64,000 bases of DNA from an uncultured Gammaproteobacteria bacterium (GCA_964431805.1 CAYSKV010000004.1:12201-76200), one strand, 5' to 3'. Positions 3,372-63,926 are shown, counted from the first letter of the stretch. The notes: a model not told the origin generated them from the sequence alone. A program made the numbers and translations.

Positions 3372-3393
3372 AAGTAAATTCAGATAAGATAAA

Positions 3394-3424
3394 AAACGCT
3401 CCTAAAAACTAGGAGCGTTTTTAT
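3394..3424 (+). terminator. Rho-independent terminator
   Basis: AACGCTCCT-AAAAACT-AGGAGCGTT hairpin followed by TTTTT. Confidence 0.85.
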
Positions 3425-3452
3425 TGCAAATATGCAAAGAAATGTTATAATG
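3425..3452 (+). promoter_or_regulatory. sigma70-type promoter for glyQS
   Basis: TTGCAA (3425-3430), 16-nt spacer, TATAAT (3447-3452). Confidence 0.6.
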
Positions 3453-3487
3453 AATTAAGCAAATTAAAGCCTAATTTTTATAAAAAT

Positions 3488-4894
3488 ATGAGTAATAAAA
3501 AGGATAATGCAGTCTTAGAAAAAATCGTTTCTTTATGTAAAAGGCGTGGTTTTGTGTATCCGTCTTCAGAAATTTATGGCGGCTTAGCCGCGATTTATGA
3601 CTATGGACATTATGGCACATTGTTAAAGAATAATATTCGCGATTCTTGGTGGAAAAGCATGATTCAGATGCGAGACGATGTCGTCGGTCTTGATAGCGCG
3701 ATTTTTATGCATCCAAAAACCTGGGTTGCCTCCGGACACGTTGGCGGTTTTAACGATCCGCAAATTGATTGCAAAGTTTGTAAAAATAGATTTAGAGCCG
3801 ATCATTTATTAAAAAGTTATGGCATTGAAGCTGATAAAGCTACCCTAGAAGAGATTAACAATCATCTAAATGAACTTCGCGCAAAAAAGAAATTAAAATG
3901 CCCTAACTGCGGTTCGACTAATTTAACGGACGCAAAAGTTTTTTCGTTAATGGTAAAATCAAATATCGGTTCTCCGACGGATGAGCTTAAAGAAGAAAAT
4001 GTTGTTTATTTAAGACCGGAAACTTGCGGCGGCATTTATTTAGAATATAAAAATACGGTTGATTCTTTGCATAAGAAATTACCTTTTGGTATCGCGCAAG
4101 TTGGTAAAGCTTTTAGAAATGAAATTGTGGCTAGGCAATTTATTTTTAGAACTCGCGAATTTGAACAAATGGAAATGCAATATTTTCTTCATCCGAGCAT
4201 GATGAAAGAAAAATATGATATGTGGAAAGAAATAAGATGGAATTGGTATTTAGCTAATGGCATACCGGCGGATAAAATAAAATGGTATAAACATGAAAAG
4301 TTGGCTCATTATGCCTCCGAAGCTTATGATATTTTATATGATTTTAAAATTTTTGGCGATTTTGATGAAGTGGAAGGAATTCATGCTCGAGGCAATTGGG
4401 ATTTAACTCAACATTCTAAATTTTCCGGCATAGAACTTAATTACACTGACGACAAAACCGGCGAAAAATTTATTCCGCATATTATGGAAACATCCGCCGG
4501 TCTTAATCGAATGCTTTTAATGTTCCTTGATTTCGCTTACTCAGAAGAAACGGTTAAAGACGAGACTAGAGTAGTAATGAAATTTCCTAAACATTTAGCG
4601 CCAATTAAAATCGCTGTTTTTCCTTTATTAAGAAATAAGCCGGAGTTGGTTAAAAAGGCTAAAGAATTATATTCAGAATTGGCAAAAAATTATATATGTG
4701 AGTTTGATGATAATGGCAATATCGGCAAGCGTTATCGCCGACAAGATGAAATTGGCACGCCATATTGCGTAACCGTTGACTTTGATACTTTAGAGGATAA
4801 TCAGGTCACAGTAAGAGACCGCGATACCATGGAACAAGCTAGAGTAAAGATATCTGAATTAGAAAATTTTTTTCAAGACAAGTTTTCTAAATGA
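3488..4894 (+). CDS. glyQS: Glycine--tRNA ligase (dimeric class II type)
   Basis: 468 aa. N-terminus KRRGFVYPSSEIYGG, LRPETCGGIYL, FRNEI..R.FIFRTREFEQMEMQYF, and a C-terminal anticodon-binding domain (KRYRRQDEIGTPYCVTVD). Confidence 0.93.
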   Translation: MSNKKDNAVLEKIVSLCKRRGFVYPSSEIYGGLAAIYDYGHYGTLLKNNIRDSWWKSMIQMRDDVVGLDSAIFMHPKTWVASGHVGGFNDPQIDCKVCKNRFRADHLLKSYGIEADKATLEEINNHLNELRAKKKLKCPNCGSTNLTDAKVFSLMVKSNIGSPTDELKEENVVYLRPETCGGIYLEYKNTVDSLHKKLPFGIAQVGKAFRNEIVARQFIFRTREFEQMEMQYFLHPSMMKEKYDMWKEIRWNWYLANGIPADKIKWYKHEKLAHYASEAYDILYDFKIFGDFDEVEGIHARGNWDLTQHSKFSGIELNYTDDKTGEKFIPHIMETSAGLNRMLLMFLDFAYSEETVKDETRVVMKFPKHLAPIKIAVFPLLRNKPELVKKAKELYSELAKNYICEFDDNGNIGKRYRRQDEIGTPYCVTVDFDTLEDNQVTVRDRDTMEQARVKISELENFFQDKFSK

Positions 4895-6798: not shown

Positions 6799-6937
6799 AT
6801 GTCATTGCGAGCGTTAGCGAAGCAATCCCACGAACAGTTAATTAAAATAAATCTTCATCGCAGAAACAATCTATTATTTTAATAAATAGTACGTGAGATT
6901 GCCGCGTCGCCTGGTCACAGGCTCCTCGCAATGACAT
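6799..6937. repeat. Extragenic palindromic element (GTCATTGCGAG...GCAATC family), two inverted units
   Basis: ATGTCATTGCGAG (6799-6811) is the exact reverse complement of CTCGCAATGACAT (6925-6937). Inner GCAATCCCACG (6822-6832) matches the reverse complement of CGTGAGATTGC (6892-6902) with one mismatch. A ~57-nt AT-rich spacer separates the units. Confidence 0.75.
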
Positions 6938-24629: not shown

Positions 24630-24920
24630 TTATTTTTCTTGTCTTTCCATTTTTATGGCTTTAAATGGGCACTCAACTGCGCATAAGCCACAACCCTTAC
24701 AATACAATAAATCACATTCAAAATATTTTTTACCGCTAGCGTTAGTTTTTTCGGTTTGATTAATTATGCCTTCAGGACAAATTCGTTGGCAAATGCCGCA
24801 AGCCGTGCATGCGTCATGTAAAAAATTTGGCCGGTTAGTGCGCCAGGCGCCGGTTTTATTTATTAATGTTGTGTTTGGTGAAACTGAAATATTATTTTTT
24901 ACCCCGTTAGATAGTCTCAT
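24630..24920 (-). CDS. porD: Pyruvate:ferredoxin oxidoreductase delta subunit (2x[4Fe-4S] ferredoxin)
   Basis: Two CxxCxxCxxxCP motifs: CTACGICQRICP and CKGCGLCAVECP. Confidence 0.9.
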   Translation of the reverse strand: MRLSNGVKNNISVSPNTTLINKTGAWRTNRPNFLHDACTACGICQRICPEGIINQTEKTNASGKKYFECDLLYCKGCGLCAVECPFKAIKMERQEK

Positions 24921-24961
24921 GTTTTTTAGTTATACCCCGTAAAATAATTATCTAACGGGGT
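24901..24961 (-). promoter_or_regulatory. 13-bp perfect inverted repeat enclosing the porD start codon (porG-porD junction)
   Basis: ACCCCGTTAGATA (24901-24913) is the exact reverse complement of TATCTAACGGGGT (24949-24961). A third partial copy, ACCCCGT, sits at 24934-24940. The porD ATG (24920-24918) lies inside. Confidence 0.6.
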
Positions 24962-25500
24962 GAATATTTGTATGCCTGTTCAATTGCTTTTATATTTTTT
25001 TCTATTAAATCATTATGGCCGGCAAATTTTTCTTCAATGGCTTGTTTTAAAGCAGCTAAACTTATTAAGCCAGTTGCTTTAGCAAAAGCGCCCAAAATAA
25101 CCGTATTAACAATATTTTTACCGATTATTTCTAAGGCGATTTTAGTGGCGTCAATCGTATAAATATTGGCTTGTGGCAGATTAATTTTTAAATCACGCTT
25201 AGCTTTAGACGTGTTAATAATGGCGATAGTTTTTTTGTCCGCGCCTTTAGTCATGTCAAAATTATCAAGCAGACTAGCGTCTTGAATAATTAAAATGTTT
25301 GGTTGATAAATTTGTTCTCTGGTTATTATTGGTTTATCGTCTATGCGGGCATAAGCTTCTACTGGAGCGCCGGTTCTTTCTACGCCGAAAGAGGGGAAAG
25401 CTTGCGCTTGCTCGCCGTTTTTAAAAGCGGCGATGGCGATTAGTTCAGCAGCCGTTACTACGCCTTGGCCGCCGCGGCCATGAATTCTAATTTGTATCAT
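24952..25500 (-). CDS. porG: Pyruvate:ferredoxin oxidoreductase gamma subunit
   Basis: MIQIRIHGRGGQGVVTAAELIA N-terminus, typical of PorG/PorC. Confidence 0.9.
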   Translation of the reverse strand: MIQIRIHGRGGQGVVTAAELIAIAAFKNGEQAQAFPSFGVERTGAPVEAYARIDDKPIITREQIYQPNILIIQDASLLDNFDMTKGADKKTIAIINTSKAKRDLKINLPQANIYTIDATKIALEIIGKNIVNTVILGAFAKATGLISLAALKQAIEEKFAGHNDLIEKNIKAIEQAYKYSPR

Positions 25501-34758: not shown

Positions 34759-37224
34759 ATGAATTTTACTATAATATTACCATTAATCAGCGCGATCTTA
34801 GCTATTAGCATAGGCATTTTTGTATTTAAGCAAAATAGAAAAAGTTTGATAAATCAAACTTTTTTTCTTTTTACTCTTGGTATAACGGAATGGTTTATTT
34901 GCACTTTCATGATGTTTTTATATAAAGATGATGTGGCGGGGGTAATTTTTTGGGATAGATTAGTCTATGCTGGTGTAGCATTTATGCCGGTTTTTACTTA
35001 TAAATTTTATTTAGCCTTAATTGGTAAAAAATCTGACAAAATTCTTTATGTCGGTTATTTATTATCAATAAGTTTTGCGATCCTTACACGTTCAAAATAT
35101 TTTATTGATGGTATTTATGTTTATAGCTGGGGCGTCCATACACAAGCTAGAATTCTGCACCATATATTTTTGGTGTATTTTGTAGTATTTATATTATTAT
35201 GGTTCTTCGCTACTTTAAAATTTTATAAAAGCCTTAAACCGTCATTAATTAAAGAACAAACTAAATATATATTTATATCTTTTGGCGTATTTTATTTAAT
35301 TGCGCCTCTCGGTTTTTTAGCGGCTTATAATGTAGGAGTTTATCCTGTAACATATTTTTCTGGATTAATTTTTACTATCATGATGGCTTATTGTATAGCG
35401 ATTTATCGCGTTATGGACATTAAATTAGTAATTAGAAAATCCTCCGTCTATCTCTTTTCCCTGGCCACAGTTTTAATTTTTATGACGACCGTTAAATTGA
35501 TTTCTGCTCAATTATTTACTGCTCCTCCAATTTGGATTGATTTATTGGTTCTATTAATTGCTGTTTATATTTTTTCGCCTATTAAGCATTATTACTATCG
35601 TTTAGCTAATAAATATTTCTTCTCCTCTTTGTATGATAGCCGCGAACTAATTGCTGATTTAAGCGATAAACTCCGCTCTACCATTGAAATCGGTAAAATC
35701 TATGAATATGTTTCAGAAATTTTAGTTAATGCTTTGCACGTGACCGCTTTTGGCGTTGTGTCTTTTGATGAAAAAAAACAAGTTTATATAACCCAGTATG
35801 GTCAAGGCTTAAACATCGGCCAACAAGAAATATTCCCAGGCAGTAAAGAAATATATAAAATTTTTACTAAAAGAAATCAGCCGATCATTGTTGAAGAAAT
35901 AAAATTTAGTAATTTTAAAATTAATAAGTCAATTTTAAATTTACTCACTAAAGCAAACGTCGCCCTGTTATCTCCTCTAAACATGAAAGATAAAACAGTC
36001 GGCATGATGGTATTTGGCCCTAAAGAATCCAAAGACCCTTTTAACGAAGAAGATTTAAAAGTTCTAGAAATTTTAGGCACGCAAATCGCTTTTGCCATGG
36101 AGAACGCTTTGCTCTACGCAGAATCGGTAAAATTTAATATCCAATTGAATGAAGAAAAAAATAAAATTGCGGCTATTATCGCTAACTTTATCGACCCGAT
36201 TATCTTTGTTGACCGCTATAATAATATTAACCTCATAAACCCGGCCGCTAAAAACATCCTCGGTTTAACAGAAAAAAGCTTGGGCGTAAGCATAGATACT
36301 AGCAATAATTGCCCGATGTCTAACTTCCGTACCGTCATCAAAAAAGAGTTTCAGATTAAAGAAATTGGCAATTTAAAATCAACTGATCATCATAGCGAAG
36401 AAATGTCTATTTTAGTTAATAACCAAGAATTAATTTATAAAATTACAACCATCAGGGTTTTTGATGATCAAACAAACCACCTAGGCCTCATGAAAATTTT
36501 CGTCAATCTCACCCGCGAAAAAGGCATTGATAAAATGAAATCAGAATTTATCTCTATCGCCGCCCATCAGCTAAGAACCCCATTATCAGCCATTAAATGG
36601 GTAATTAAGATGATATTAGACGGGGATGCTGGAGAACTTAATGTTGAGCAAAAAGATTTATTAAGGAAGGGCTATATTAGCAACGAAAGAATTATCAGAT
36701 TAGTTAATGATTTATTAAACGTTTCTCGTATTGAAGAAGGTAAGTTTGGATTTAATTTTGAAAAAACCGATTTTCAAGAAATTTTGACTACGACCAAAAG
36801 CAACTTAGAAGGTTTAATAGCAAAAAATCACCAAGAATTAATAGTGCAAAAACCAGAGAAACTACCTAAAGTATATCTGGACAAAGAAAGAATGGTTATG
36901 GTTTTGCAAAATTTACTTGATAATGCCATAAAATATACTCCAGAATATGGAAAAATAGAAATAATTGTTACTACCGACAAAAAATTTCTGCATGTTAAAG
37001 TTAAAGATCAAGGGGTAGGCATAAGCAAAAATGATCAAGCTAAATTATTTTCTAAATTTTTCCGAGCCTCTAATGCGCTTAAACTAGAAACCGAAGGCAG
37101 CGGATTAGGATTGTTTATAGTAAAAAATATTATTGAAAAACATAATGGTTCAATTGAATTAAAAAGCGAAGAAGGTCGAGGAACCGAAATAAGTTTTTCT
37201 TTGCCAATTGAGCAAAAACTTTAG
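34759..37224 (+). CDS. Sensor histidine kinase 1 (multi-TM sensor, GAF-like, PAS-like, HisKA, HATPase_c)
   Basis: H-box SIAAHQLRTPL, N-box LLDNAIKYTP, G-boxes DQGVGI and GSGLGL, and an N-terminal domain of about 7 TM segments. Confidence 0.9.
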   Translation: MNFTIILPLISAILAISIGIFVFKQNRKSLINQTFFLFTLGITEWFICTFMMFLYKDDVAGVIFWDRLVYAGVAFMPVFTYKFYLALIGKKSDKILYVGYLLSISFAILTRSKYFIDGIYVYSWGVHTQARILHHIFLVYFVVFILLWFFATLKFYKSLKPSLIKEQTKYIFISFGVFYLIAPLGFLAAYNVGVYPVTYFSGLIFTIMMAYCIAIYRVMDIKLVIRKSSVYLFSLATVLIFMTTVKLISAQLFTAPPIWIDLLVLLIAVYIFSPIKHYYYRLANKYFFSSLYDSRELIADLSDKLRSTIEIGKIYEYVSEILVNALHVTAFGVVSFDEKKQVYITQYGQGLNIGQQEIFPGSKEIYKIFTKRNQPIIVEEIKFSNFKINKSILNLLTKANVALLSPLNMKDKTVGMMVFGPKESKDPFNEEDLKVLEILGTQIAFAMENALLYAESVKFNIQLNEEKNKIAAIIANFIDPIIFVDRYNNINLINPAAKNILGLTEKSLGVSIDTSNNCPMSNFRTVIKKEFQIKEIGNLKSTDHHSEEMSILVNNQELIYKITTIRVFDDQTNHLGLMKIFVNLTREKGIDKMKSEFISIAAHQLRTPLSAIKWVIKMILDGDAGELNVEQKDLLRKGYISNERIIRLVNDLLNVSRIEEGKFGFNFEKTDFQEILTTTKSNLEGLIAKNHQELIVQKPEKLPKVYLDKERMVMVLQNLLDNAIKYTPEYGKIEIIVTTDKKFLHVKVKDQGVGISKNDQAKLFSKFFRASNALKLETEGSGLGLFIVKNIIEKHNGSIELKSEEGRGTEISFSLPIEQKL
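35438..36636 (+). repeat. Identical segment shared by the two kinase genes (copy 1)
   Basis: 35438-36582 is identical base for base to 37956-39100 (offset 2518; I compared every line). There are two mismatches at 36583 and 36585, then identity to 36636. Confidence 0.95.
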
Positions 37225-37255: not shown

Positions 37256-39748
37256 ATGAATTTACAAAATTTTTTATCACTAAATGGTCTTTTAACCGGA
37301 ATCATAGCCGCTGTTTTTGGTTTCATGGTTATTTTTAAAGATCGAAAAAATATTATTAATCAAACCCTTTTTGGCCTAACTATGACTACCGCTCTTTGGC
37401 AACTTGGTTATTGGCGTTGGTTAATGATTTATGATAATCAAGATTTAGCTTTATTTTGGTGTCGAGTTTTATCAGTCGGTTCTCATTTTCTCGCAGTTTT
37501 TTATTTTCATTGGATTGTTTCTTTGTTGGGTTTGAATAAACAGAAAAAAAAGCTTATTTTTGTTTCTTATTTTGTAGCTGGTATTTTTTTGTTTTTTATT
37601 TTTTCCCCTTGGTTTGTCAGTAGTGTTGAGCCCGTCGGAAATTATTTTGCTTTTTGGCCTAAAGCCGGTTTTTTATATTCTATTTACATAGTTTTAATGT
37701 TTTTGGGTTTAGCTCCTTATGCTCTTTTTTTACTTTTCAGACATTATAAAAAATCTGTTGGTCAAAAAAGAAATCAAATAAAATATGTTATTATTGCCAC
37801 AATTCTCGCTTTTGGTGGGGGAGAAACTAATTTTCCTCTTTGGTATGATATTCCTATATTGCCCATAGGAAATGTATTAGTCGTGTTATATCCAATTCTT
37901 TTTTCTTATGCAATTATTAGACATCGTTTAATGGATATAAAGTTTGTTTTACGCCAATCCTCCGTCTATCTCTTTTCCCTGGCCACAGTTTTAATTTTTA
38001 TGACGACCGTTAAATTGATTTCTGCTCAATTATTTACTGCTCCTCCAATTTGGATTGATTTATTGGTTCTATTAATTGCTGTTTATATTTTTTCGCCTAT
38101 TAAGCATTATTACTATCGTTTAGCTAATAAATATTTCTTCTCCTCTTTGTATGATAGCCGCGAACTAATTGCTGATTTAAGCGATAAACTCCGCTCTACC
38201 ATTGAAATCGGTAAAATCTATGAATATGTTTCAGAAATTTTAGTTAATGCTTTGCACGTGACCGCTTTTGGCGTTGTGTCTTTTGATGAAAAAAAACAAG
38301 TTTATATAACCCAGTATGGTCAAGGCTTAAACATCGGCCAACAAGAAATATTCCCAGGCAGTAAAGAAATATATAAAATTTTTACTAAAAGAAATCAGCC
38401 GATCATTGTTGAAGAAATAAAATTTAGTAATTTTAAAATTAATAAGTCAATTTTAAATTTACTCACTAAAGCAAACGTCGCCCTGTTATCTCCTCTAAAC
38501 ATGAAAGATAAAACAGTCGGCATGATGGTATTTGGCCCTAAAGAATCCAAAGACCCTTTTAACGAAGAAGATTTAAAAGTTCTAGAAATTTTAGGCACGC
38601 AAATCGCTTTTGCCATGGAGAACGCTTTGCTCTACGCAGAATCGGTAAAATTTAATATCCAATTGAATGAAGAAAAAAATAAAATTGCGGCTATTATCGC
38701 TAACTTTATCGACCCGATTATCTTTGTTGACCGCTATAATAATATTAACCTCATAAACCCGGCCGCTAAAAACATCCTCGGTTTAACAGAAAAAAGCTTG
38801 GGCGTAAGCATAGATACTAGCAATAATTGCCCGATGTCTAACTTCCGTACCGTCATCAAAAAAGAGTTTCAGATTAAAGAAATTGGCAATTTAAAATCAA
38901 CTGATCATCATAGCGAAGAAATGTCTATTTTAGTTAATAACCAAGAATTAATTTATAAAATTACAACCATCAGGGTTTTTGATGATCAAACAAACCACCT
39001 AGGCCTCATGAAAATTTTCGTCAATCTCACCCGCGAAAAAGGCATTGATAAAATGAAATCAGAATTTATCTCTATCGCCGCCCATCAGCTAAGAACCCCA
39101 CTCTCAGCCATTAAATGGGTAATTAAGATGATATTAGACGGGGATGCTGGAGAATTGTCTCTGGAACAACAAGAACTATTAAACAAAGGTTATCTAAGCA
39201 ACGAACGAGTTATTAGGTTAGTTAACGACCTATTGAACGTTTCTCGTATTGAAGAAGGCAAATTTGGGTTTAATTTTGAGAGCACTGATTTTAAAGAAGT
39301 TCTAGACACTTCCATTAGTAATATTGATAGTTTAATTGATAAAAGCCATCAAGAGCTCAAGATTGAAATCCCGCCAAAACTACCCAAGATATATTTAGAT
39401 AAAGAAAGAATCATTATGGTAATACAAAATTTATTAAGTAATGCCATCAAATATACTCCAGAATATGGTAAGATTGAAGTAATTATTAAAGTTGACAAGC
39501 AGTACCTGAATGTTAAAATTAAAGACCAGGGGGTAGGCATACCGGCCGAAGATCAGCCAAAAATATTTTCTAAATTTTTCCGAGCGGCTAATGTGGTTAA
39601 ATTAGAAACCGAAGGCAGCGGACTAGGCCTCTTTATGGTTAAAAACATCATCGAAAAACATAAGGGCCAAGTCAGTTTAAAAAGCGAAGAAGGCAAAGGC
39701 ACGGAAGTTAGTTTTACTTTGCCGATAAATGGAATGATTAGTTTATAA
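37256..39748 (+). CDS. Sensor histidine kinase 2 (paralog of 34759-37224)
   Basis: Same domain order as kinase 1. The N-terminal TM sensor is only weakly similar, the core is identical, and the catalytic domain is moderately diverged. Confidence 0.9.
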   Translation: MNLQNFLSLNGLLTGIIAAVFGFMVIFKDRKNIINQTLFGLTMTTALWQLGYWRWLMIYDNQDLALFWCRVLSVGSHFLAVFYFHWIVSLLGLNKQKKKLIFVSYFVAGIFLFFIFSPWFVSSVEPVGNYFAFWPKAGFLYSIYIVLMFLGLAPYALFLLFRHYKKSVGQKRNQIKYVIIATILAFGGGETNFPLWYDIPILPIGNVLVVLYPILFSYAIIRHRLMDIKFVLRQSSVYLFSLATVLIFMTTVKLISAQLFTAPPIWIDLLVLLIAVYIFSPIKHYYYRLANKYFFSSLYDSRELIADLSDKLRSTIEIGKIYEYVSEILVNALHVTAFGVVSFDEKKQVYITQYGQGLNIGQQEIFPGSKEIYKIFTKRNQPIIVEEIKFSNFKINKSILNLLTKANVALLSPLNMKDKTVGMMVFGPKESKDPFNEEDLKVLEILGTQIAFAMENALLYAESVKFNIQLNEEKNKIAAIIANFIDPIIFVDRYNNINLINPAAKNILGLTEKSLGVSIDTSNNCPMSNFRTVIKKEFQIKEIGNLKSTDHHSEEMSILVNNQELIYKITTIRVFDDQTNHLGLMKIFVNLTREKGIDKMKSEFISIAAHQLRTPLSAIKWVIKMILDGDAGELSLEQQELLNKGYLSNERVIRLVNDLLNVSRIEEGKFGFNFESTDFKEVLDTSISNIDSLIDKSHQELKIEIPPKLPKIYLDKERIIMVIQNLLSNAIKYTPEYGKIEVIIKVDKQYLNVKIKDQGVGIPAEDQPKIFSKFFRAANVVKLETEGSGLGLFMVKNIIEKHKGQVSLKSEEGKGTEVSFTLPINGMISL
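37956..39154 (+). repeat. Identical segment shared by the two kinase genes (copy 2)
   Basis: See 35438-36636. Even the antisense 73-aa track ORFs (35877-36098 and 38395-38616) are identical. Confidence 0.95.
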
Positions 39749-41467: not shown

Positions 41468-41719
41468 TTAAATTAGGTTTGAGTAGGATTTATTTTTTTT
41501 GCGTTTAAACTCACAATGAAAAATAAAAGTCGAGATACCAGCGAGCATCGTCATCAAAGAGACGACAGACACAAAAGAGAAAATGTCATAATAATTCGCT
41601 GGCTGGTTAGAAAAAATTATTTTTTGGAACAGTTCTTCTGCTGTCGGCCATAATAAAAATGATATAGCCGTAGCGCTGGCAACAAACAAGAAAAGTAAAT
41701 AAGTTGTTCGATTTTTCAT
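41468..41719 (-). CDS. Hypothetical small membrane protein
   Basis: 83 aa with two TM segments. Confidence 0.45.
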   Translation of the reverse strand: MKNRTTYLLFLFVASATAISFLLWPTAEELFQKIIFSNQPANYYDIFSFVSVVSLMTMLAGISTFIFHCEFKRKKNKSYSNLI

Positions 41720-41759
41720 TTTTTCCCCTCCCTGTCTTTTTTTTATTTTTTTAATAATG

Positions 41760-43988: not shown

Positions 43989-44027
43989 AAAAAATAAATG
44001 TCATTTTAGTGACAAATTAAATAATAC

Positions 44028-45119
44028 TTATCTGGCCAATACGTATTGCATACTGCCTAAATTTTTTACCATTCCTTTCATTTCCATGATAGTAAGTGTA
44101 CTATTTATAATTGATGTGTCAAGTTTTGTCAACTGTTTAAGCTCGTCAATATGAATTGGCTCATAAGATAATCCCGCGAGAATTATTTTTTCTTCATTTG
44201 TATCAGGAATTACTTTTTTGTTTTCAATGTAAGAAGCCGCTTCGGCTAAATTAAGAGTTTCTATAATATCTTTAGCGCTGGTTACTAATTTTGCTCCCAT
44301 AGCAATTAAGCGATTAGTGCCTTCCGAAGAACCGGAATAAATACTGCCGGGCACGGCAAAAACTTCTCGATTTTGCTCTAAAGCATGAAAAGCCGTAATT
44401 AGCGCGCCGGATTTTTCAGCGGCTTCTACAACTAAAGTAGCGTTAGATAGGCCGGAAATTATTCGGTTTCTTTGGGGAAAGTGATGCTTTAAAGGCATAG
44501 TGCCGATTGGGTATTCTGATAAAATTAATCCGCCGTGAGTCTGAATTTTATCCGCTAAATAGCGATTTTGTGAAGGGTAAATATTTTGTTGGTCAAGTCC
44601 GGAGCCTAAAACCGCTACGGTTTTTCCGCCAGCTTCAATCGCGGCTGAATGAGCTAGAGTATCTATGCCTAAAGCTAAGCCGCTCGTAATAGTTAAATTA
44701 TTTAAACTTAACTCTCTGGTTAATTTTTCCGTAGCTTGCGCTCCGTAAGGGCTATATTTTCTGGCGCCGACCACGGCTAGTAAAAAACCGTTCAAAGCTT
44801 CTAAATCTCCGCGGTAATATAAGATAAAGGGCGGATCATAAATTTGTTTTAAAAGTTTTGGGTAAGCTGGATCTTCTATGGTTAAAGCTTTTAATTTTTC
44901 TTTGTTCAAATTTTCCAATAATTTTTCCGGTTCAACTTTATGTTTAAAAATTATGAATTCTTCAGCGATCTTTTCTTCAATGCCAGCGTGAATATAATCT
45001 TTTATCGTGGCTTTATAGGCGTTTTCAATATTAGAAAAATAATTTTTTAACTTTTTAAATTTTATTGGGCCGAATTTATAAAACTGGCTTAGCGCCAGCC
45101 AATATTTAAGATCATTCAT
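44028..45119 (-). CDS. dprA: DNA processing protein DprA (Smf)
   Basis: VVGARKYSPYG, GLALGIDTLAHSAA, FPQRNRIISGLS, VVEAAEKSGALITA; adjacent to topA, as in many bacteria. Confidence 0.92.
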   Translation of the reverse strand: MNDLKYWLALSQFYKFGPIKFKKLKNYFSNIENAYKATIKDYIHAGIEEKIAEEFIIFKHKVEPEKLLENLNKEKLKALTIEDPAYPKLLKQIYDPPFILYYRGDLEALNGFLLAVVGARKYSPYGAQATEKLTRELSLNNLTITSGLALGIDTLAHSAAIEAGGKTVAVLGSGLDQQNIYPSQNRYLADKIQTHGGLILSEYPIGTMPLKHHFPQRNRIISGLSNATLVVEAAEKSGALITAFHALEQNREVFAVPGSIYSGSSEGTNRLIAMGAKLVTSAKDIIETLNLAEAASYIENKKVIPDTNEEKIILAGLSYEPIHIDELKQLTKLDTSIINSTLTIMEMKGMVKNLGSMQYVLAR

Positions 45120-45168
45120 GTTTAATTTTTATTTTATATTAGCGATAATTATCTAGATTATTTAAGTC

Positions 45169-45197
45169 TTGACAGGATGGTTTAGTTATGTTAATAT
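45169..45197 (+). promoter_or_regulatory. Consensus sigma70-type promoter for candidate sRNA 1
   Basis: TTGACA (45169-45174), 17-nt spacer, TAATAT (45192-45197). Confidence 0.65.
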
Positions 45198-45203
45198 ACT
45201 ATG

Positions 45204-45332
45204 ATATTTAATTTTATAGCGTTCAGTTTGTTACTTGCTTAAGGGCATAATTTATAAATAGTTTTCCTCCTTAATTATTTATAAATTTTGAATCCCTTTT
45301 AAAGCAAGTAGCACATTGAGCGTTATTTTTTT
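45204..45332 (+). ncRNA. Candidate sRNA 1: ~110-nt extended hairpin with a CCUCCU apical loop and U7 terminator
   Basis: 45216-45245 pairs with 45294-45326 (one mismatch, four G.U pairs, a small internal loop). A 12-bp apical stem joins 45249-45260 and 45276-45287. The 15-nt loop is GTTTTCCTCCTTAAT. T-run 45326-45332. Confidence 0.55.
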
Positions 45333-45360
45333 GACAATTATCTTTTTTCATAATAACATA
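45331..45360 (+). promoter_or_regulatory. sigma70-type promoter candidate for element 2 / orphan ORF leader
   Basis: TTGACA (45331-45336) overlaps the preceding U-run. The best -10 candidates are TAATAA (45351-45356) or TAACAT (45355-45360). Confidence 0.45.
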
Positions 45361-45361
45361 T

Positions 45362-45505
45362 TTAGACGTAACCACAAATAGTATTTAGAATTTTGTCTAG
45401 GAGTGGTGAAAGTTAAACCTCCCTCCTGGTTTGGCTGGAGCCTTAAATCGGGGTTATCCCTATGCTTCTAGACAGAATTGTAAATAGTATTTGTTGTTTT
45501 TATTT
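45362..45505 (+). ncRNA. Candidate structured RNA 2 or 5' leader of ORF 45551 (27-bp closing stem, anti-SD box)
   Basis: 45374-45400 pairs with 45468-45494 (two G-G mismatches, one G.U pair), followed by TGTTTTTATTTATT. The internal CCTCCCTCCT (45418-45427) contains CCCTCCT, complementary to AGGAGGG (45540-45546). Confidence 0.45.
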
Positions 45506-45550
45506 ATTGGTCATTATAACTAATTATTTAAAGAGATTGAGGAGGGTATA

Positions 45551-45871
45551 ATGAATGCTATAGAAATGACGGTTAAAGTTGTTGACAGGAAAAACGAAGG
45601 AGATATTCATAATGATGATTTTATTTACGGCGGCTGGAAAGATGAAGATGAGAAAAAAGAATTCGTCCAGTATTTAAGGCTTGGGCGCTTCTTTCAAGCC
45701 CAACACGAACACTTAAAACAGCTGACAGTATTAAAGAATGACAAAGAAATAGTGCGAGCAGTTATTGCTGGAGAAACTAATAATGAAAATATTCTGCGCG
45801 ATGCTCGCAACGAATACCTCTACTTTTTTAAAGCAAAACATGGTAAACTCCCCAGCTTTAAGAAACAATAA
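45551..45871 (+). CDS. Hypothetical 106-aa cytoplasmic protein (orphan)
   Basis: Strong SD GAGGAGGG sits 4 nt before ATG 45551. No TM segment and no recognisable family. Confidence 0.6.
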   Translation: MNAIEMTVKVVDRKNEGDIHNDDFIYGGWKDEDEKKEFVQYLRLGRFFQAQHEHLKQLTVLKNDKEIVRAVIAGETNNENILRDARNEYLYFFKAKHGKLPSFKKQ

Positions 45872-45889
45872 TTAACAAAAAATACAAAA

Positions 45890-45918
45890 ACGGCCACTTA
45901 TATTGGCCGTCTTTTTTT
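45890..45918. terminator. Bidirectional terminator
   Basis: ACGGCCA (45890-45896) / TGGCCGT (45904-45910), flanked by an A-run and a T-run; lies between convergent genes. Confidence 0.85.
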
Positions 45919-45928
45919 ATTTAAAAAA

Positions 45929-46432
45929 TTAATTTTTTTTTGTTATTTCAGATATTGTAGAGTTGATTTTTTTTAATTCTTCCGGCTTGAATTTTTGCAA
46001 AACGAATTTTTCCGCAGGAATTTTTTCTAACTCTAGCGTTTTAATACCGATTCTTAGGCGTTTAAAGTTTTTAGTGTTTAGCCGATCAATTATAGATTGA
46101 ACTCCATTATGTCCGGCGCTTCTTGAGTCCACAGAAATTTTATATTTGCCGAGTTCTATATCTAAATCATCATGAATAACGGTTAAATTTTCCGGCGATA
46201 ATTTATAATAAGCTAAAGTTAATACTACGGCCGAGCCGGATTCATTCATAAAAGTAAGCGGTTTTACTAAAATAACATCATCGCCTTTAGCTATGTCGGC
46301 TTTAAATTTTTTATTATTTTTCCATTTTAAATCTAATTTTTTAGCTAAAGCGTCAACCGCCATAAAACCAGCGTTATGACGAGTTGTTTTATATTGTTCG
46401 CCTGGATTGCCCAGACCGACGATAATATTCAT
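45929..46432 (-). CDS. pth: Peptidyl-tRNA hydrolase
   Basis: MNIIVGLGNPG...TRHNAGF start at ATG 46432. The track ORF extends 19 codons upstream into the der 3' end. Confidence 0.92.
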   Translation of the reverse strand: MNIIVGLGNPGEQYKTTRHNAGFMAVDALAKKLDLKWKNNKKFKADIAKGDDVILVKPLTFMNESGSAVVLTLAYYKLSPENLTVIHDDLDIELGKYKISVDSRSAGHNGVQSIIDRLNTKNFKRLRIGIKTLELEKIPAEKFVLQKFKPEELKKINSTISEITKKN

Positions 46433-51567: not shown

Positions 51568-51618
51568 AAGGTTTACGCTTATTAAGCGATTTAGCAATAT
51601 TGGATTGGAGGTGCATTT

Positions 51619-51855
51619 ATGGCAGAATTCAAAAGAAAAAAAGGCGAAAGTTTTGAGAGCTTCTTAAGAAGATTCAATAAAAAACTTCAGCAAAGCGGCA
51701 AATTATATTTAGCCCGCCAGGTTCAACATGTTCAGCCGAAAATCAATAAAACGCAGCAGAAAAAGCGCGCTTTAGTTGGCATGAAACTTAAATCAAAAAG
51801 AGAATATTTAAAGAAAATCGGTAAACTAGAAGAAGAAACCAGAAAGAGATGGTAA
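51619..51855 (+). CDS. rpsU: 30S ribosomal protein S21
   Basis: MAEFKRKKGESFESFLRRFNKK...; basic, 78 aa. Confidence 0.88.
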   Translation: MAEFKRKKGESFESFLRRFNKKLQQSGKLYLARQVQHVQPKINKTQQKKRALVGMKLKSKREYLKKIGKLEEETRKRW

Positions 51856-58700: not shown

Positions 58701-61170
58701 TGCGGCTAACCCGAGCGGCGTTTGCCAAGACTGCGCGCAGATAAGCGACGCGGCGCTTTGCAGTAATCAAGGCGTTGGCACTTGCTGCGTTGATGCTAAA
58801 AATAAAAATGCTTGCCGCGGCGGTACAGCTCCATACGCTAGCGGCAGCCCATCTTATAATTATTGCGGTTATTATGAATGTAATAATGGTAGCTGTTCCG
58901 GCACGCCAGTAGCCACTTCGACAGTTTTAAGTTATAAAACTTTAACTGAATGCAGTAATAAGTGTACGACTCCGCCTCAATTTGGCAATACCTGTTTTAG
59001 TAGCGCCACCACAACGCAAAGCTGTGATATTAATAAGTGTACCGGCTTTGCTTGTATTAACGCAGATGGCACAGGCCCAGCGGCTCCAAATTGCGGTACC
59101 TGCTGCTGCGATCCTTTTGCTACTATTGATAATTGTAAAAATTTAAATCCTAACTTAACTTGTAAACCTAACCAAGCGCCTTGTAGCGGTAGTAGCCGCG
59201 GCCTTTGCTGCGGTTGTTCCGCGGATAGCGATTGCGGTAGCGTAACTGGTTGCGGGACTGATACTTGCTGTCATGCCAGGCCGACCGTGATTGAAACTGT
59301 GCCGGCGGATGGAGCTACTAATGTTTGCCGCAATGGTTTAATTAAAGCTACATTTGACCAAGCCATGCAAACCGATACTTTTAAAGAAAATGTGATTGTG
59401 GTTGGGGATTACGGGCTTGATAAATGTCCGACCGGAACTAAATATTTAACTGAAGCTTATAAACCGGGTTTGTTTGAAAAATTAACTTATTGGTTAGCGA
59501 GGCTGCCTTTATTAGATAAGATTTTTATAAATCAAGCGAAAGCTTTAACTGGAAATTTCTGCGCGGTTACCGGATCGATTAGCGGTTATGCGGCAGGCAA
59601 CACAACTGTCATGGAATTTAAAACGAAAAAAGCTTTAGAGGCCGGTAGAAAATATTATGTTATTATAAAAGGCGATAGTAATTTAAATGATGCGGTTGCC
59701 GTCGGAGTTTTAAGCGAATCGGGCGTTGGCCTAGGCCAGTCATCCACCGAGTCATTTAACGGTGTTAATTTCACCGGTAAAATTTGGTCGTTTACTACTA
59801 AAGAAAGTACGGCCACTGATAACGGCATTTGTTTAGTTTCTTCGGTCGCGATTGATCCTTCAAGTTATTTATTTAATACTGCTACTAATGATTCGGCCGA
59901 TGATAATGTCGGAACAAATTATGATACGATTAGGGACAGCGATAAAGTTTTTTATTCAACGGCTTATTCTTCGGAAAAACAACCGATCATTCCAATTGAA
60001 AGTCTTTATAATTGGCAGTGGAATTGGAATATAGATAATAAAGCAGTTGTGAAATTTAAAAATGGCGAGAATGCGCTGGATAATAGTTCAACTCAGACTT
60101 TAGTTGCGCAAAATGTTAAAGAAGCTAATACTTTGCTTCATGCCAAACTTACTATTACTCAAGATGAAGTTAATAAAATATCAACTATCGGCCAATCTAA
60201 AGAAAAAACTGCTCCGGTTTATGTTTTCTTATGTTCTAATCCTTGGCCGTCGTTTAAAACTGATGGCACCTGGGAGCCTTGGCAAGATGCTGCTGGAAAT
60301 TGCATATCTGCATCCGGTGATTGTTCGGCTACTAATTTTGAATTATATTATTGCCGTGACGCTGGGGCTGAAGGCACAGCTGATGATTTACCGGCTATTA
60401 TAAGTGATAAAGCAGTAATCAGGGGCCAAAATTTGAAATGCGATGACGGAACTGGTAGTTGTTTGGGTAAAGCTAAAAATGACACATGTAATGATGGTAG
60501 TGGAAAATGTCAAGTGGATATAGTAAAAGAATTTTATTTCTTTAGAGAAAATATGCCTAACGTAGCGGGCGTGAATTTAACTACTAGAGTTAACGATGAA
60601 GTGCAGCAGGGCGGTAAAGCCGGGTTAGTTTGGCAGGCAGTTACTATACCAGCGGGCGAAGAATTAGATAAATATTTAATTTATTATGGCACTAGGTCAG
60701 GAAATTATGAACAGTCAATTTTTACGGCTGAGCCAGGTTCAATTAATAACCCGGCGATCGTTAATAATTTAACTAACGGAGTAAAATATTATTTTGCCGT
60801 GACCGCTAGATATAAAAGCGGAGCCGAAAGCATTTATTCAAATGAAACTAGTTTCACTCCGGCCGATAATTGGGCGCCATTAACTCCAGTAGATTTTATT
60901 GGCGAAGCCGATCAGGGGCAAGCTAAACTTGAATGGCTTGCCAATCAAGACGATACGACAATTTATAAAGTTTATTATGGTGCTACTAGCGGTTCTTTGG
61001 CTGCGTCGGTTAATTTAGAAAAAAAGAAATGTTCTGCCGCTAGCGGAAAATGTACTCTTACTATAGATGAGTTATCCGCCGGCACTACTTATTATTTTGC
61101 CGTGACCGCTCTAGACCTTAAAGGCAATGAGAGCAATAAATCAGCTGAAATTAATTTATTAATTTTATAA
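55768..61170 (+). CDS. Giant (~1800 aa) Cys-rich surface protein with an N-terminal pilin hairpin, IPT/TIG-like, Ig-like and FN3-like domains
   Basis: ATG 55768 (MNKIRIKK) is preferred over GTG 55759. Hairpin FLGFLGIIAVSLVMYAGWMYMTAEGDSEKVEKAKKIL. Two tandem Cys-knot-like repeats (GEGEPC... and GEGESC...). Four IPT-like repeats. A ~560-aa Cys-dense region at nt ~57600-59280. Two C-terminal FN3-like repeats (YYFAVTA twice). Confidence 0.7.
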   Translation: MNKIRIKKVLFIFCLLVAVFAVAHFALAADLNVGLDKAAGTGLGDTDPRIIAARIIRIFLGFLGIIAVSLVMYAGWMYMTAEGDSEKVEKAKKILIGALIGLVICLASFAIASFILNSLLDATGAQDNTGGGGGGTITPGGGIPNLPGEGEPCLTNPLDTQCAAGQCAAGLNCSQSDCLCKKTNQPGEGESCDGDTKVDGCQAIDCANNLICSSSDNCTCIKTPLIAWVSPMDASSTPNGAVGNFITIGGRYFGTTTGQVVFMGDPNNANDDKVATFPNLINPLCLSFWQDDQIIVVVPDGAVNGPIKVIDSKNRYDTTDDNRGARINDFVVNSIKRPGLCQVDPSSGGLADPFNLQGNSFNLTPHSVLFGKETSAIEANNIKNWTNTSVDAVVPNIVDGRNSIFVKTGDVYSNSLSFSVVNKTDTNPVIEYIEPDKGPSGQYITIYGRNFQIYNAQKSAVKFYLPADPNNKINADIDFPAACKSTWWHDTYIVVKVPKVNSLGDYKVEVTNSYDKTSLPADFVINNETPTPGLCALDPNNGPIGWPMSAYGERFGATQGSGRAQYFNNKDATASSWADGKVNTNVPAQSVSGPFRIIDNQGYISNSLPFRVGKCSSNADCDSSEECCGGGTYWSGICRPAGTCNQGAPLGCGFGWTFSTKAGDCAITQQKCDIPNPPAGSTITFNCCAPGQCNAYTGQCDSCPVNKPDMCDGDLKCCSTGGCIDLDNDGKTECSDGEACSQYGLSQCSSSYFCPNSPGKCSTYGGGGTIETGDCDFSCNNFSACKTDLCEYRSGINKCIKKSQTCSLSKTVSYNVGLTPATATAECSAYDGGNRWIMKISTSCPAGWTSISGGRCVENNTTCSICDTGFKCLKETASAVDGGCFIDQNVCQVGSACSSSNKCIKSDSASCECCCRIGHDSEDCCSPLKCEGKCGSDITANTNTYGRCSGCASVGTTQADHNEACNCSGTSGKFCLVDAANPSGVCQDCAQISDAALCSNQGVGTCCVDAKNKNACRGGTAPYASGSPSYNYCGYYECNNGSCSGTPVATSTVLSYKTLTECSNKCTTPPQFGNTCFSSATTTQSCDINKCTGFACINADGTGPAAPNCGTCCCDPFATIDNCKNLNPNLTCKPNQAPCSGSSRGLCCGCSADSDCGSVTGCGTDTCCHARPTVIETVPADGATNVCRNGLIKATFDQAMQTDTFKENVIVVGDYGLDKCPTGTKYLTEAYKPGLFEKLTYWLARLPLLDKIFINQAKALTGNFCAVTGSISGYAAGNTTVMEFKTKKALEAGRKYYVIIKGDSNLNDAVAVGVLSESGVGLGQSSTESFNGVNFTGKIWSFTTKESTATDNGICLVSSVAIDPSSYLFNTATNDSADDNVGTNYDTIRDSDKVFYSTAYSSEKQPIIPIESLYNWQWNWNIDNKAVVKFKNGENALDNSSTQTLVAQNVKEANTLLHAKLTITQDEVNKISTIGQSKEKTAPVYVFLCSNPWPSFKTDGTWEPWQDAAGNCISASGDCSATNFELYYCRDAGAEGTADDLPAIISDKAVIRGQNLKCDDGTGSCLGKAKNDTCNDGSGKCQVDIVKEFYFFRENMPNVAGVNLTTRVNDEVQQGGKAGLVWQAVTIPAGEELDKYLIYYGTRSGNYEQSIFTAEPGSINNPAIVNNLTNGVKYYFAVTARYKSGAESIYSNETSFTPADNWAPLTPVDFIGEADQGQAKLEWLANQDDTTIYKVYYGATSGSLAASVNLEKKKCSAASGKCTLTIDELSAGTTYYFAVTALDLKGNESNKSAEINLLIL

Positions 61171-62852: not shown

Positions 62853-62953
62853 CCCCAGTTAGAAATTAATTAATGGTTTAATTATTCTGGTTATATTAAG
62901 TAAAAATAAAATAATTACTGCGATGAAAAAACAAAAAAGAAATTCTAACGGGG
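62853..62953 (+). promoter_or_regulatory. Imperfect inverted repeat of the CCCCGTTAGA family spanning the ybeY start codon
   Basis: CCCCAGTTAGAAATT (62853-62867) versus AATTCTAACGGGG (62941-62953): 4 + 7 bp with one bulged A. ATG 62923 lies between the arms. Confidence 0.5.
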
Positions 62954-63360
62954 TAAAGCTAGAAATTAATAATCAAACCAAACATAAAATTGACTCGAAA
63001 TTAATAGAAAAAGTTATTAAAGTTTTCGGCCGAGTTTATAAAATAAATAAAAATAAAGAGATCTCTTTAGCTTTTGTAAGCGATAATGAAATAAAGAAAT
63101 TAAATAAATCATATCGCGGTTTTAATAAGCCGACCGATATTTTATCTTTTCCTGGCGAAGGCGATTTTTTAGGAGAAATTATTATTGATTACGATCAAAT
63201 TAAGCGCCAAGCGGTTAATTTTAAAAATAGCGCTAAGCAAGAGTTAATTTTTATTTTGATCCACGGCCTACTGCATTTAGTCGGCTACGATGATAAAACC
63301 GATAAGGCCAGAGAAAAGATGATAAAGCTAGGCGAGAAATTTATAAAAAATTATTTATGA
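62923..63360 (+). CDS. ybeY: rRNA maturation endoribonuclease YbeY
   Basis: Zinc motif HGLLHLVGYDD, and TDILSFP. Confidence 0.92.
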   Translation: MKKQKRNSNGVKLEINNQTKHKIDSKLIEKVIKVFGRVYKINKNKEISLAFVSDNEIKKLNKSYRGFNKPTDILSFPGEGDFLGEIIIDYDQIKRQAVNFKNSAKQELIFILIHGLLHLVGYDDKTDKAREKMIKLGEKFIKNYL

Positions 63361-63749: not shown

Positions 63750-63926
63750 AGAGATAGTTACAAAACTATTTTGTAACGAAATTTAGATATTTTTTGCCAA
63801 GACGAGGAAGGCCAGCAAAATGATTGAGTCGTAGCAATAGCTACGGCGAAATAACTTTGCGCCAGCTTGACGAAGTATTGATAGAAAATAGCAAATTGCA
63901 GTAAAAATAATTTTGTAACTATCTCT
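63750..63926 (+). ncRNA. Candidate structured leader/sRNA or MITE-like element closed by a 23-nt inverted repeat
   Basis: AGAGATAGTTACAAAACTATTTT (63750-63772) versus AAAATAATTTTGTAACTATCTCT (63904-63926), 22/23 complementary. A competing local hairpin is GTTACAAAA-CTA-TTTTGTAAC (63757-63777). An inner hairpin is CGTAGC-AATA-GCTACG. Confidence 0.45.

Follow-up and report, generated by a model that had tools for sequence, protein, structure and literature searches.

Two adjacent candidate small RNA genes with anti-Shine-Dalgarno-like loops, conserved between dprA and pth in Falkowbacteria-like Parcubacteria

The interval between dprA and pth in the stretch of DNA analyzed here (64,000 nucleotides, GCA_964431805.1 CAYSKV010000004.1:12201-76200; hereafter the window) holds two structured units in tandem on the plus strand, unit 1 and unit 2, followed by ORF106, an orphan open reading frame (ORF) of 106 codons. 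A first-pass annotation had read unit 2 either as an independent small RNA (sRNA) or as a terminator/anti-Shine-Dalgarno leader with riboswitch or thermosensor logic, and had regarded the two units as a regulatory system dedicated to the orphan gene. The comparison with related loci favors the first of these readings, since both units are found in tandem in relatives lacking ORF106 (16 of 21 loci); the idea of a system dedicated to ORF106 is not supported, for the same reason. The features of the locus, in window coordinates, are listed below (nt, nucleotides; MFE, minimum free energy; SD, Shine-Dalgarno sequence).

45169 to 45197, plus strand: predicted unit 1 promoter from the promoter scan, TTGACA, 17 nt, TG-n-TAATAT (extended -10)
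45216 to 45327, plus strand: unit 1 RNA, a long imperfect hairpin, MFE -50.3 kcal/mol, z -8.9
45328 to 45334, plus strand: U-run directly 3' of the unit 1 hairpin
45331 to 45359, plus strand: predicted unit 2 promoter from the scan, TTGACA (45331-45336), 17 nt, TAACAT (45354-45359)
45370 to 45377 with 45491 to 45498, plus strand: outer extension of helix P1, in the ORF106 clade only, paired in the window's MFE structure
45378 to 45490, plus strand: unit 2 RNA core, a three-way junction, from the MFE fold, RNAalifold and pair counts
45378 to 45404 with 45464 to 45490, plus strand: P1, the closing helix of unit 2, conserved across relatives
45405 to 45407 with 45440 to 45442, plus strand: junction helix of unit 2
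45412 to 45419 with 45428 to 45435, plus strand: P2 hairpin of unit 2
45420 to 45427, plus strand: P2 apical loop UCCCUCCU, 8 nt, the anti-SD-like box, unpaired in the MFE and consensus structures
45421 to 45427, plus strand: box core CCCUCCU within the P2 loop
45450 to 45453 with 45458 to 45461, plus strand: P3 hairpin of unit 2
45495 to 45508, plus strand: U-rich tract TGTTTTTATTTATT (= UGUUUUUAUUUAUU) after the stem, possibly a leftover terminator U-tract
45509 to 45550, plus strand: ORF106 leader
45509 to 45520, plus strand: leader block GGTCATTATAAC, a possible weak -10, unchanged in ORF106-bearing loci except for the last base in L007/L008
45539 to 45546, plus strand: ORF106 SD GAGGAGGG, with AGGAGGG at 45540-45546, five bases before the ATG
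45551 to 45871, plus strand: ORF106, an orphan protein of the closest clade only, ATG at 45551, 106 codons
45886 to 45914, both strands: predicted bidirectional intrinsic terminator common to ORF106 and pth, from scan matches at 45890-45910 (plus) and 45914-45886 (minus)

Folding of the plus strand of unit 2 (45360-45510) gave -56 kcal/mol, compared with -30.2 +/- 3.7 kcal/mol for shuffled sequences (n = 200, none of them as good; z -7.0). The minus strand reached a z of -4.9 with a fold 18 kcal/mol weaker. The long stem of the first-pass annotation, with arms of 27 positions at 45374-45400 and 45468-45494, is present as described, including the G-G oppositions at 45381/45487 and 45388/45480, the G.U pair at 45393/45475 and the 67 enclosed nucleotides; its limits, however, had to be revised, the conserved P1 lying four pairs further in. 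The outermost pairs (45374-45377 / 45491-45494) are limited to the ORF106-bearing clade, and in ORF-less relatives an unrelated sequence takes the place of the 3' partner of the outer extension. Across 19 sequences, the 40 pairs of unit 2 have 97.2% of their cells paired and 11 pairs are changed on both sides, the counted cells not being independent events since the sequences are related. None of 500 shuffles reached the observed pairing percentage, double-change counts or covariation score, and sliding the partners by 1-3 columns lowered the pairing to 35-53%. An independent MAFFT alignment of 13 sequences analyzed with RNAalifold displayed 97.5% of paired cells and six pairs changed on both sides. 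Seven pairs are mostly G.U or U.G on the plus strand, their minus-strand equivalents being A-C mismatches; a minus-strand reading, with GGA-rich loops as in a CsrB-like sponge, was rejected on these mismatches and on the weaker fold. The structure of unit 2 is real and belongs to the plus strand, and the RNA is predicted to be about 130-145 nt long, folded around a three-way junction.

The box reported in the first-pass annotation, CCTCCCTCCT at 45418-45427, is located in the P2 arm, and its CCCTCCT is the exact 7-nt complement of AGGAGGG in the ORF106 SD. An upstream AGGAGTGG (45399-45406) that had been proposed to compete for the box is likewise present, but its AGGAG (45399-45403) is held in P1 by covarying pairs.

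Relatives were collected in successive steps. The first set of loci was obtained with an exact 22-nt DNA pattern of the unit 2 core, box included, which retrieved 11 real loci from metagenomes and, from species-representative genomes, one Patescibacteria metagenome-assembled genome (L001) plus two matches, L009 (coding) and L011, that were discarded as chance hits in GC-rich DNA; L022, from a metagenome, was discarded likewise. Further relatives were reached through DprA homologues at most 76% identical to the window's and searched with our own covariance models, R1 for unit 2 and R2 for unit 1; three of them are too distant to be among the window's best 120 DprA matches, the weakest of which is 61% identical. 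The named DprA relatives belong to Candidatus Falkowbacteria / Parcubacteria. R1 found unit 2 in 21 loci (the window and 20 relatives) with scores of 88-163 bits. The two units always lie on the same strand, unit 1 first, between pth and dprA, so the conservation of the locus that the first-pass annotation proposed to check holds for the units; it does not extend to ORF106, present in only five of the 21 loci. One relative, L030 (DprA 65% identical), has different DNA upstream of dprA and its contig ends after 224 nt, and is uninformative on the units.

Unit 2 copies in ORF-less relatives are 83-99% identical to that of the window. For L017, L018 and L023, DNA identity to the window is 91-95% in the units, against 75-84% in pth, dprA and der. 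All 21 homologous loci keep the core CCCUCCU without change, always in an apical hairpin loop. In eight loci reached through DprA, L031 and L032 among them, the box reads CCUCCCUCCU, CCCCCCUCCU (L024), CGCCCCUCCU (L029), ACCCUCCU or CCCCCUCCU, with the core kept in each case. The 10-mer box alone is not unusual (one match with at most one mismatch versus 0.91 expected), so that its weight comes from conservation. Rfam searches gave no match over the whole window at the gathering threshold, nothing overlapping unit 2 in 45000-46000 at E-values up to 10, and no match at all in four relatives at E-values up to 0.05. ARAGORN found no tRNA or tmRNA in the window, and with ARAGORN and Rfam combined the housekeeping RNA models (tRNA, tmRNA, signal recognition particle (SRP) RNA, 6S, RNase P, 5S) had no match. 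SRP, 6S, 5S and Y RNAs were also considered as identities for the units and set aside, since their defining motifs were not seen by eye and the Rfam models did not match.

Unit 1 carries in its apical loop UUCCUCCUU (45264-45272), the loop in the fold reading UUUUCCUCCUUAA; the core of this loop, UCCUCCUU, is invariant across loci. RNAalifold assigned 38 pairs to unit 1, six of them with compensatory changes. With R2, unit 1 was found at 19 loci, on the same strand as unit 2 and 5' of it in every case, and locus L033 has unit 1 without unit 2. Each unit is present as a single copy within the window. We do not claim that they are paralogues: their local alignment does not surpass that of shuffles (11 of 500 score as high) and is not in register, and the cross-matches of R1 and R2 between the units are weak (21-27 bits). 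Both loops read as copies of the anti-Shine-Dalgarno (ASD) core of 16S rRNA, taken here in its canonical form.

The unit 1 promoter, TTGACA-17(16)-TAATAT, reaches a score of 10 of 12 in 13 of the 19 unit-1 loci and has one-base variants in three more, while its spacer sequence varies freely; retention in nearly all loci with a varying spacer is the signature of a working sigma-70-type promoter. The second TTGACA noted in the first-pass annotation was read directly at its position, and the predicted unit 2 promoter that it opens is identical in 11 of 21 loci, has a one-base variant in L023 and is unclear in the most distant loci; in L013, L016 and L027 the -10 block AATAATAACAT is kept despite a poor -35. 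Transcription of unit 2 would start near 45364-45366. Several loci carry insertions that leave the units undisturbed: a repeat of 75 nt separates promoter 1 from hairpin 1 in L004, and about 180 nt (L013) and about 190 nt (L028) lie between the two units, which shows promoters and units to be separable modules. The inter-unit insertions are repeat-rich (about 2412-2560 in L013 and about 2674-2790 in L028). L028 also has a 560-nt segment with GC-rich inverted repeats (about 2940-3500) between dprA and the unit 1 promoter.

Immediately downstream of unit 2, 13 of the 21 loci have an A-tract, a GC-rich hairpin and a U-tract, beyond which the 3' end of the opposite-strand pth is reached; local folds of these terminator hairpins range from -12 to -32 kcal/mol. 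The GC-rich hairpin is absent where a co-oriented ORF follows closely (the window, L001, L004, L007, L020, L024 and L031). The U-rich tract of the first-pass annotation is present after the window's stem, but the consensus terminator scan makes no call at 45495-45508; its first match downstream is at 45890-45910, after ORF106, in a terminator that is the first canonical one to follow the unit 2 promoter. In L013 GGGTGTTTTTATTTATTAGG stands directly 3' of the GC-rich hairpin, and its counterpart in the window, GTTGTTTTTATTTATTGG, has no hairpin; the window's tract is possibly a leftover of the terminator U-tract that ORF-less relatives keep. Our best reading is that of two sRNA genes belonging to a new family, at least mostly with promoters of their own. 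Judged from the sequence, unit 2 would have its own promoter and terminator and no obligatory downstream gene, as expected of an sRNA, and both units display in an unpaired loop a conserved C/U-rich motif complementary to the SD (CCCUCCU in unit 2 and UCCUCCUU in unit 1).

ORF106 is a real coding gene under purifying selection. Its reading frame is intact in all alleles, and the ratio of nonsynonymous to synonymous substitutions (dN/dS) is 0.09-0.19 in the two comparisons with an estimable dS. Its homologues form six clusters among 5.8 billion proteins, all in a dprA / ORF / pth arrangement, and three clusters among 1.84 billion representatives. In agreement with the first-pass annotation, the protein has no recognizable family: no Pfam match was found, and its AlphaFold model, helical with a predicted local distance difference test (pLDDT) score of 67, has no fold match in the PDB. 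The five loci with ORF106 (the window, L001, L004, L007 and L020) are the most closely related, their flanking genes sharing 88-95% DNA identity, and across them unit 2 is almost invariant though the protein is only 62-76% identical. The dS of ORF106 is 1.2-1.6 or saturated (against L001, L004 and L007), compared with 0.24-0.57 for the adjacent dprA, pth and der, which implies that its alleles are much older than the surrounding DNA or were exchanged as a cassette. Other relatives carry unrelated orphan ORFs in the same slot and orientation:

L024, 2955 to 3110, minus strand: ORF of 51 amino acids (aa), co-oriented with the sRNA
L031, 2125 to 3000, minus strand: ORF of 291 aa, co-oriented with the sRNA
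L032, 2663 to 2926, minus strand: ORF of 87 aa, co-oriented with the sRNA

In L014 a gene on the opposite strand follows the unit 2 terminator. None of the orphan genes in the slot (L024, L031, L032, L014) has a Pfam match. The content of the slot between unit 2 and pth is variable, the orphan genes found there being unrelated from one lineage to the next.

The background in which these loops occur is poor in SDs. The core genes topA, dprA, der, pth and lytR of the window have AT-rich leaders without an SD (for example topA, 43989-44010, and dprA, 45120-45141), and a second regime is that of a few small ORFs led by very strong SDs (for example at 41720-41731 and 51607-51618). In ten related loci dprA, topA, der and pth never have an SD, with duplex energies above -3 kcal/mol and one exception at -5 kcal/mol; in the same loci many small lineage-specific ORFs, in the slot and after topA, have AAGGAGG(G) with -6 to -12 kcal/mol. 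In the whole 64-kb window there are only three instances of GGAGG ahead of a start codon that opens a real ORF, which makes the 7-nt complementarity between the loop and the ORF106 SD less trivial. One of the three is ORF106, whose predicted SD-ASD duplex (-12.7 kcal/mol) is the strongest among 47 window genes and which is also the window's best predicted duplex partner of both loops (-13.8 and -16.1 kcal/mol). The other two are:

41468 to 41719, minus strand: hydrophobic orphan ORF of 83 aa directly after topA, SD CAGGGAGGGG at about 41724-41733
51619 to 51855, plus strand: bS21-like gene (rpsU), 78 aa, Pfam Ribosomal_S21 at 23.2 bits, below the curated cut-off of 27
51607 to 51611, plus strand: SD of rpsU, GGAGG before the start

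The AGGGAGG in the SD of the 83-aa ORF is also a 7-nt complement to the unit 2 loop. The position after topA is taken in relatives by other small SD-led ORFs (orf75 in L024, orf81 in L028 and orf120 in L032). SDs with GGAGGG are common here (ORF106, the 83-aa ORF, orf81 and orf120) and match the unit 2 loop (CCCUCC) more closely than a canonical ACCUCC tail. A strong SD as a special trait of the ORFs behind unit 2 was considered and dropped, as those of small ORFs after topA, well away from unit 2, are just as strong; in this clade strong SDs hence go with rpsU and small accessory genes and not with the slot. For two RNAs exposing the anti-SD core, this SD-led small gene set would be the natural partners.

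We propose that unit 2 is the second of two adjacent sRNA genes kept between dprA and pth by Falkowbacteria-like Parcubacteria. One arm of its three-way junction displays the invariant CCCUCCU in its 8-nt apical loop, as unit 1 displays UCCUCCUU, and these loops would pair in trans with GGAGG-type ribosome-binding sites and block translation initiation. Such sites are rare in the clade, where they are restricted to rpsU and small accessory ORFs. ORF106 would be a lineage-specific cassette in the variable slot behind the sRNA, and not the purpose of the RNA; with the terminator hairpin lost in the window's lineage, it may share a transcript with unit 2 and may also be a target of that RNA. That unit 2, with unit 1, is a stand-alone sRNA we consider very probable. 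The blocking of initiation at GGAGG-type sites, suggested by the invariant loops, the target landscape and precedent, has in our estimate slightly less than an even chance, and the explanation as a whole, a stand-alone sRNA pair whose loops pair with such sites, is favored with some reserve.

Several points weigh against this explanation. The promoters and the start and end of the units are consensus matches, and 9 of the 21 loci have no clear -35 for unit 2, so unit 2 may be read through from unit 1 in some lineages. All homologues come from one clade, an invariant box counts as independent evidence only in the eight loci found by way of DprA (L024-L029, L031 and L032), and the 19-sequence alignment (A5) was fitted to the model, which biases its pair counts towards the structure. 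The whole RNA is conserved and not the loop alone, more than a seed-pairing sRNA usually needs, which may point to a protein partner or some other function. An 8-nt loop would not easily make all seven base pairs with a target.

Among the alternatives, the one that survives best is compatible with the stand-alone sRNA pair: a secondary, lineage-specific coupling in which an sRNA-ORF106 transcript is made and the loop of unit 2 or unit 1 reduces ORF106 translation, acting in cis or in trans. Loci without the terminator hairpin are exactly those with a co-oriented ORF, and loss of the hairpin in the ORF106 lineage makes read-through into ORF106 and loop-SD pairing plausible as a secondary link, in agreement with the position of the first scan-detected terminator after ORF106 and with the window's best duplex energies being those with the ORF106 SD. 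Against it, the conserved block GGTCATTATAAC could be a weak promoter of ORF106 itself, and transcription may still end at the extended AU-rich stem with its U-tract, as it apparently does at the unit 1 hairpin. We regard this coupling as possible, with the odds clearly against it.

Less likely, although still worth considering, is an RNA that binds proteins or the ribosome, its loops mimicking the 16S 3' tail (in unit 1, CCUCCUUA) so as to bind a bS21-, bS18- or bS6-like holder in a structural or decoy role. Purifying selection on the whole RNA, promoters that look strong and constitutive, and an SD-poor genome whose rpsU keeps its SD, the same pattern as in Bacteroidia, would fit such a role. 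The proposal is, however, pure analogy: the locus encodes no protein partner, the flanking dprA and pth are unrelated to the idea, and there is no known RNA of this kind for comparison.

The dedicated leader of the first-pass annotation would make unit 2 the 5' untranslated region of ORF106, a riboswitch, thermosensor or attenuator that sequesters or frees the SD. The exact 7-nt complementarity of box and SD, the lack of a canonical terminator between the unit 2 promoter and ORF106, the fact that the strongest SD of an SD-poor window is that of ORF106, and the other orphan ORFs with G-rich SDs at the same position in L024, L031 and L032 all speak for it. Yet in the 13 loci where unit 2 ends in a terminator without a gene behind it, a cis-regulator would have nothing to control, and the similarity of ORF-less unit 2 copies to the window's argues against their being decayed remnants. 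The joint conservation of box and SD expected for such a leader was not found, as the box is invariant while the SD varies among ORF106 alleles (GAGGAGGG, GGGGAGGG, GGGGAGGC, GAGGAGGA) or is absent. No conserved alternative pairing was detected, the upstream AGGAG being locked in P1 by covariation. The leader at 45496-45600 has no significant local structure (z -0.15) and its SD is not in a hairpin; in a full-length fold of 45364-45600 the box stays within its loop and the SD falls outside unit 2, a pseudoknot-type loop-SD pairing not being scored by folding. Strong SDs are moreover general for the small accessory ORFs of the clade, including those far from unit 2, and no riboswitch or leader family of Rfam matched. 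We therefore hold a dedicated leader to be very unlikely. That the units are not RNA genes at all, but a DNA palindrome, a mobile repeat (miniature inverted-repeat transposable element, MITE) or a mere terminator of the neighbors, is highly improbable: long AT-rich inverted repeats are common in the window and a real dispersed repeat is present, but each unit is single-copy there and always at the same locus, one strand alone shows the G.U pairs and compensatory changes, dprA is oriented away from the units, and pth has a terminator of its own.

The logic proposed for the stand-alone sRNA pair is a known one, while the RNAs match no described family and differ in architecture and genomic setting from known anti-SD-loop sRNAs. 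The cuckoo/RSs0680 sRNAs have two to four adjacent hairpins, each with a CCUCCUCCC loop read as an anti-SD; this motif is their most conserved part and has been proposed or shown to occlude ribosome-binding sites (PMC4615179). Like these alpha-proteobacterial sRNAs, including those of the cuckoo/RSs0680 (CcsR), C14 and NfeR1 types, the present units are adjacent hairpins that expose an anti-SD loop motif of the CCUCC type. Unlike them, they show no similarity in sequence or model (no Rfam match), and the loop motif is CCUCCCUCCU or UUCCUCCUU. Cuckoo modules measure 24-50 nt, lie in one transcript and have highly variable stems; here there are two units of more than 110 nt each, at least mostly with their own predicted promoters, one of them a three-way junction, with strongly conserved stems. 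The hosts differ as well, alpha-proteobacteria for cuckoo and a Candidate Phyla Radiation (CPR)/Parcubacteria organism with SD-less core genes in the present case.

The Firmicutes sRNAs RsaE/RoxS, RNAIII and RsaA are also independent genes with an intrinsic terminator that use unpaired C-rich loops for pairing with the SD, RNAIII through UCCC loops (PMC4615179). Homology to them is absent, and their loops have UCCC or CCCC and not a full CCUCCU; since most genes of their hosts are SD-led, specificity there depends on complementarity in the flanks of the motif. SD-sequestering leaders resemble the window's arrangement in having an anti-SD upstream of an SD, here perhaps in the same transcript. 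In those leaders, however, anti-SD and SD pair inside a compact element that always travels with the regulated gene, whereas here the loop box lies about 115 nt upstream, mostly lacks a downstream gene and has no conserved alternative fold.

In Bacteroidia the ASD is sequestered by bS21, bS18 and bS6 (PMC7797042, PMC9976891) and rpsU keeps a strong SD (PMC9976891, PMC13000453), no RNA component having been described in that system. The window shares with it an SD-poor genome and an rpsU (bS21) with a strong SD (51607-51621); the difference is that the players there are ribosomal proteins and not sRNAs.

The window contains other repeats and duplications. The dispersed repeat TTTACCCCGTTAGAT is present in five copies at up to two mismatches, versus 0.23 expected in the window:

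2003 to 2017: copy of TTTACCCCGTTAGAT
24898 to 24912 and 24950 to 24964: copies of TTTACCCCGTTAGAT forming an inverted pair (24882-24980)
60771 to 60785: copy of TTTACCCCGTTAGAT
62943 to 62957: copy of TTTACCCCGTTAGAT

The inverted pair makes a MITE-like hairpin element, and the same element is found between promoter 1 and hairpin 1 in L004 (about 2575-2650), L005, L006 and L020. Identical 40-nt contexts at 35445-35528 and 37963-38046 (minus-strand motifs), about 2.5 kb apart, lie in two neighboring ORFs (starts at 34759 and 37256, about 820-830 aa each), which suggests a tandem gene duplication. Other long inverted repeats, at 6822-6902 and 63750-63926, with arms of 29 nt (83% complementarity) and 23 nt (96%, 131 nt apart), could be further structured RNAs or repeat elements.

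CPR bacteria have very few protein regulators, and to our knowledge almost nothing is known of their RNA regulators. The outcome here is two covariation-supported sRNA families with covariance models (R1 and R2), a genomic anchor between dprA and pth, and a testable idea of what they bind. For annotation, the case is a warning that a structured RNA next to an orphan ORF should not be read as its leader before relatives have been checked. More speculatively, and with low confidence, the two conserved RNAs with their predicted promoters may form a control layer for SD-led genes (rpsU and the small accessory ORFs with rapid turnover, such as ORF106) in a lineage with SD-less core genes, acting by SD occlusion or by titrating ASD-hiding proteins, with the slot behind unit 2 as a preferred landing site for new SD-led genes. 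Should the link hold, the combination of a hidden anti-SD and an SD-led rpsU known from Bacteroidia would have a counterpart in a second and very distant lineage, with an RNA as an additional player.

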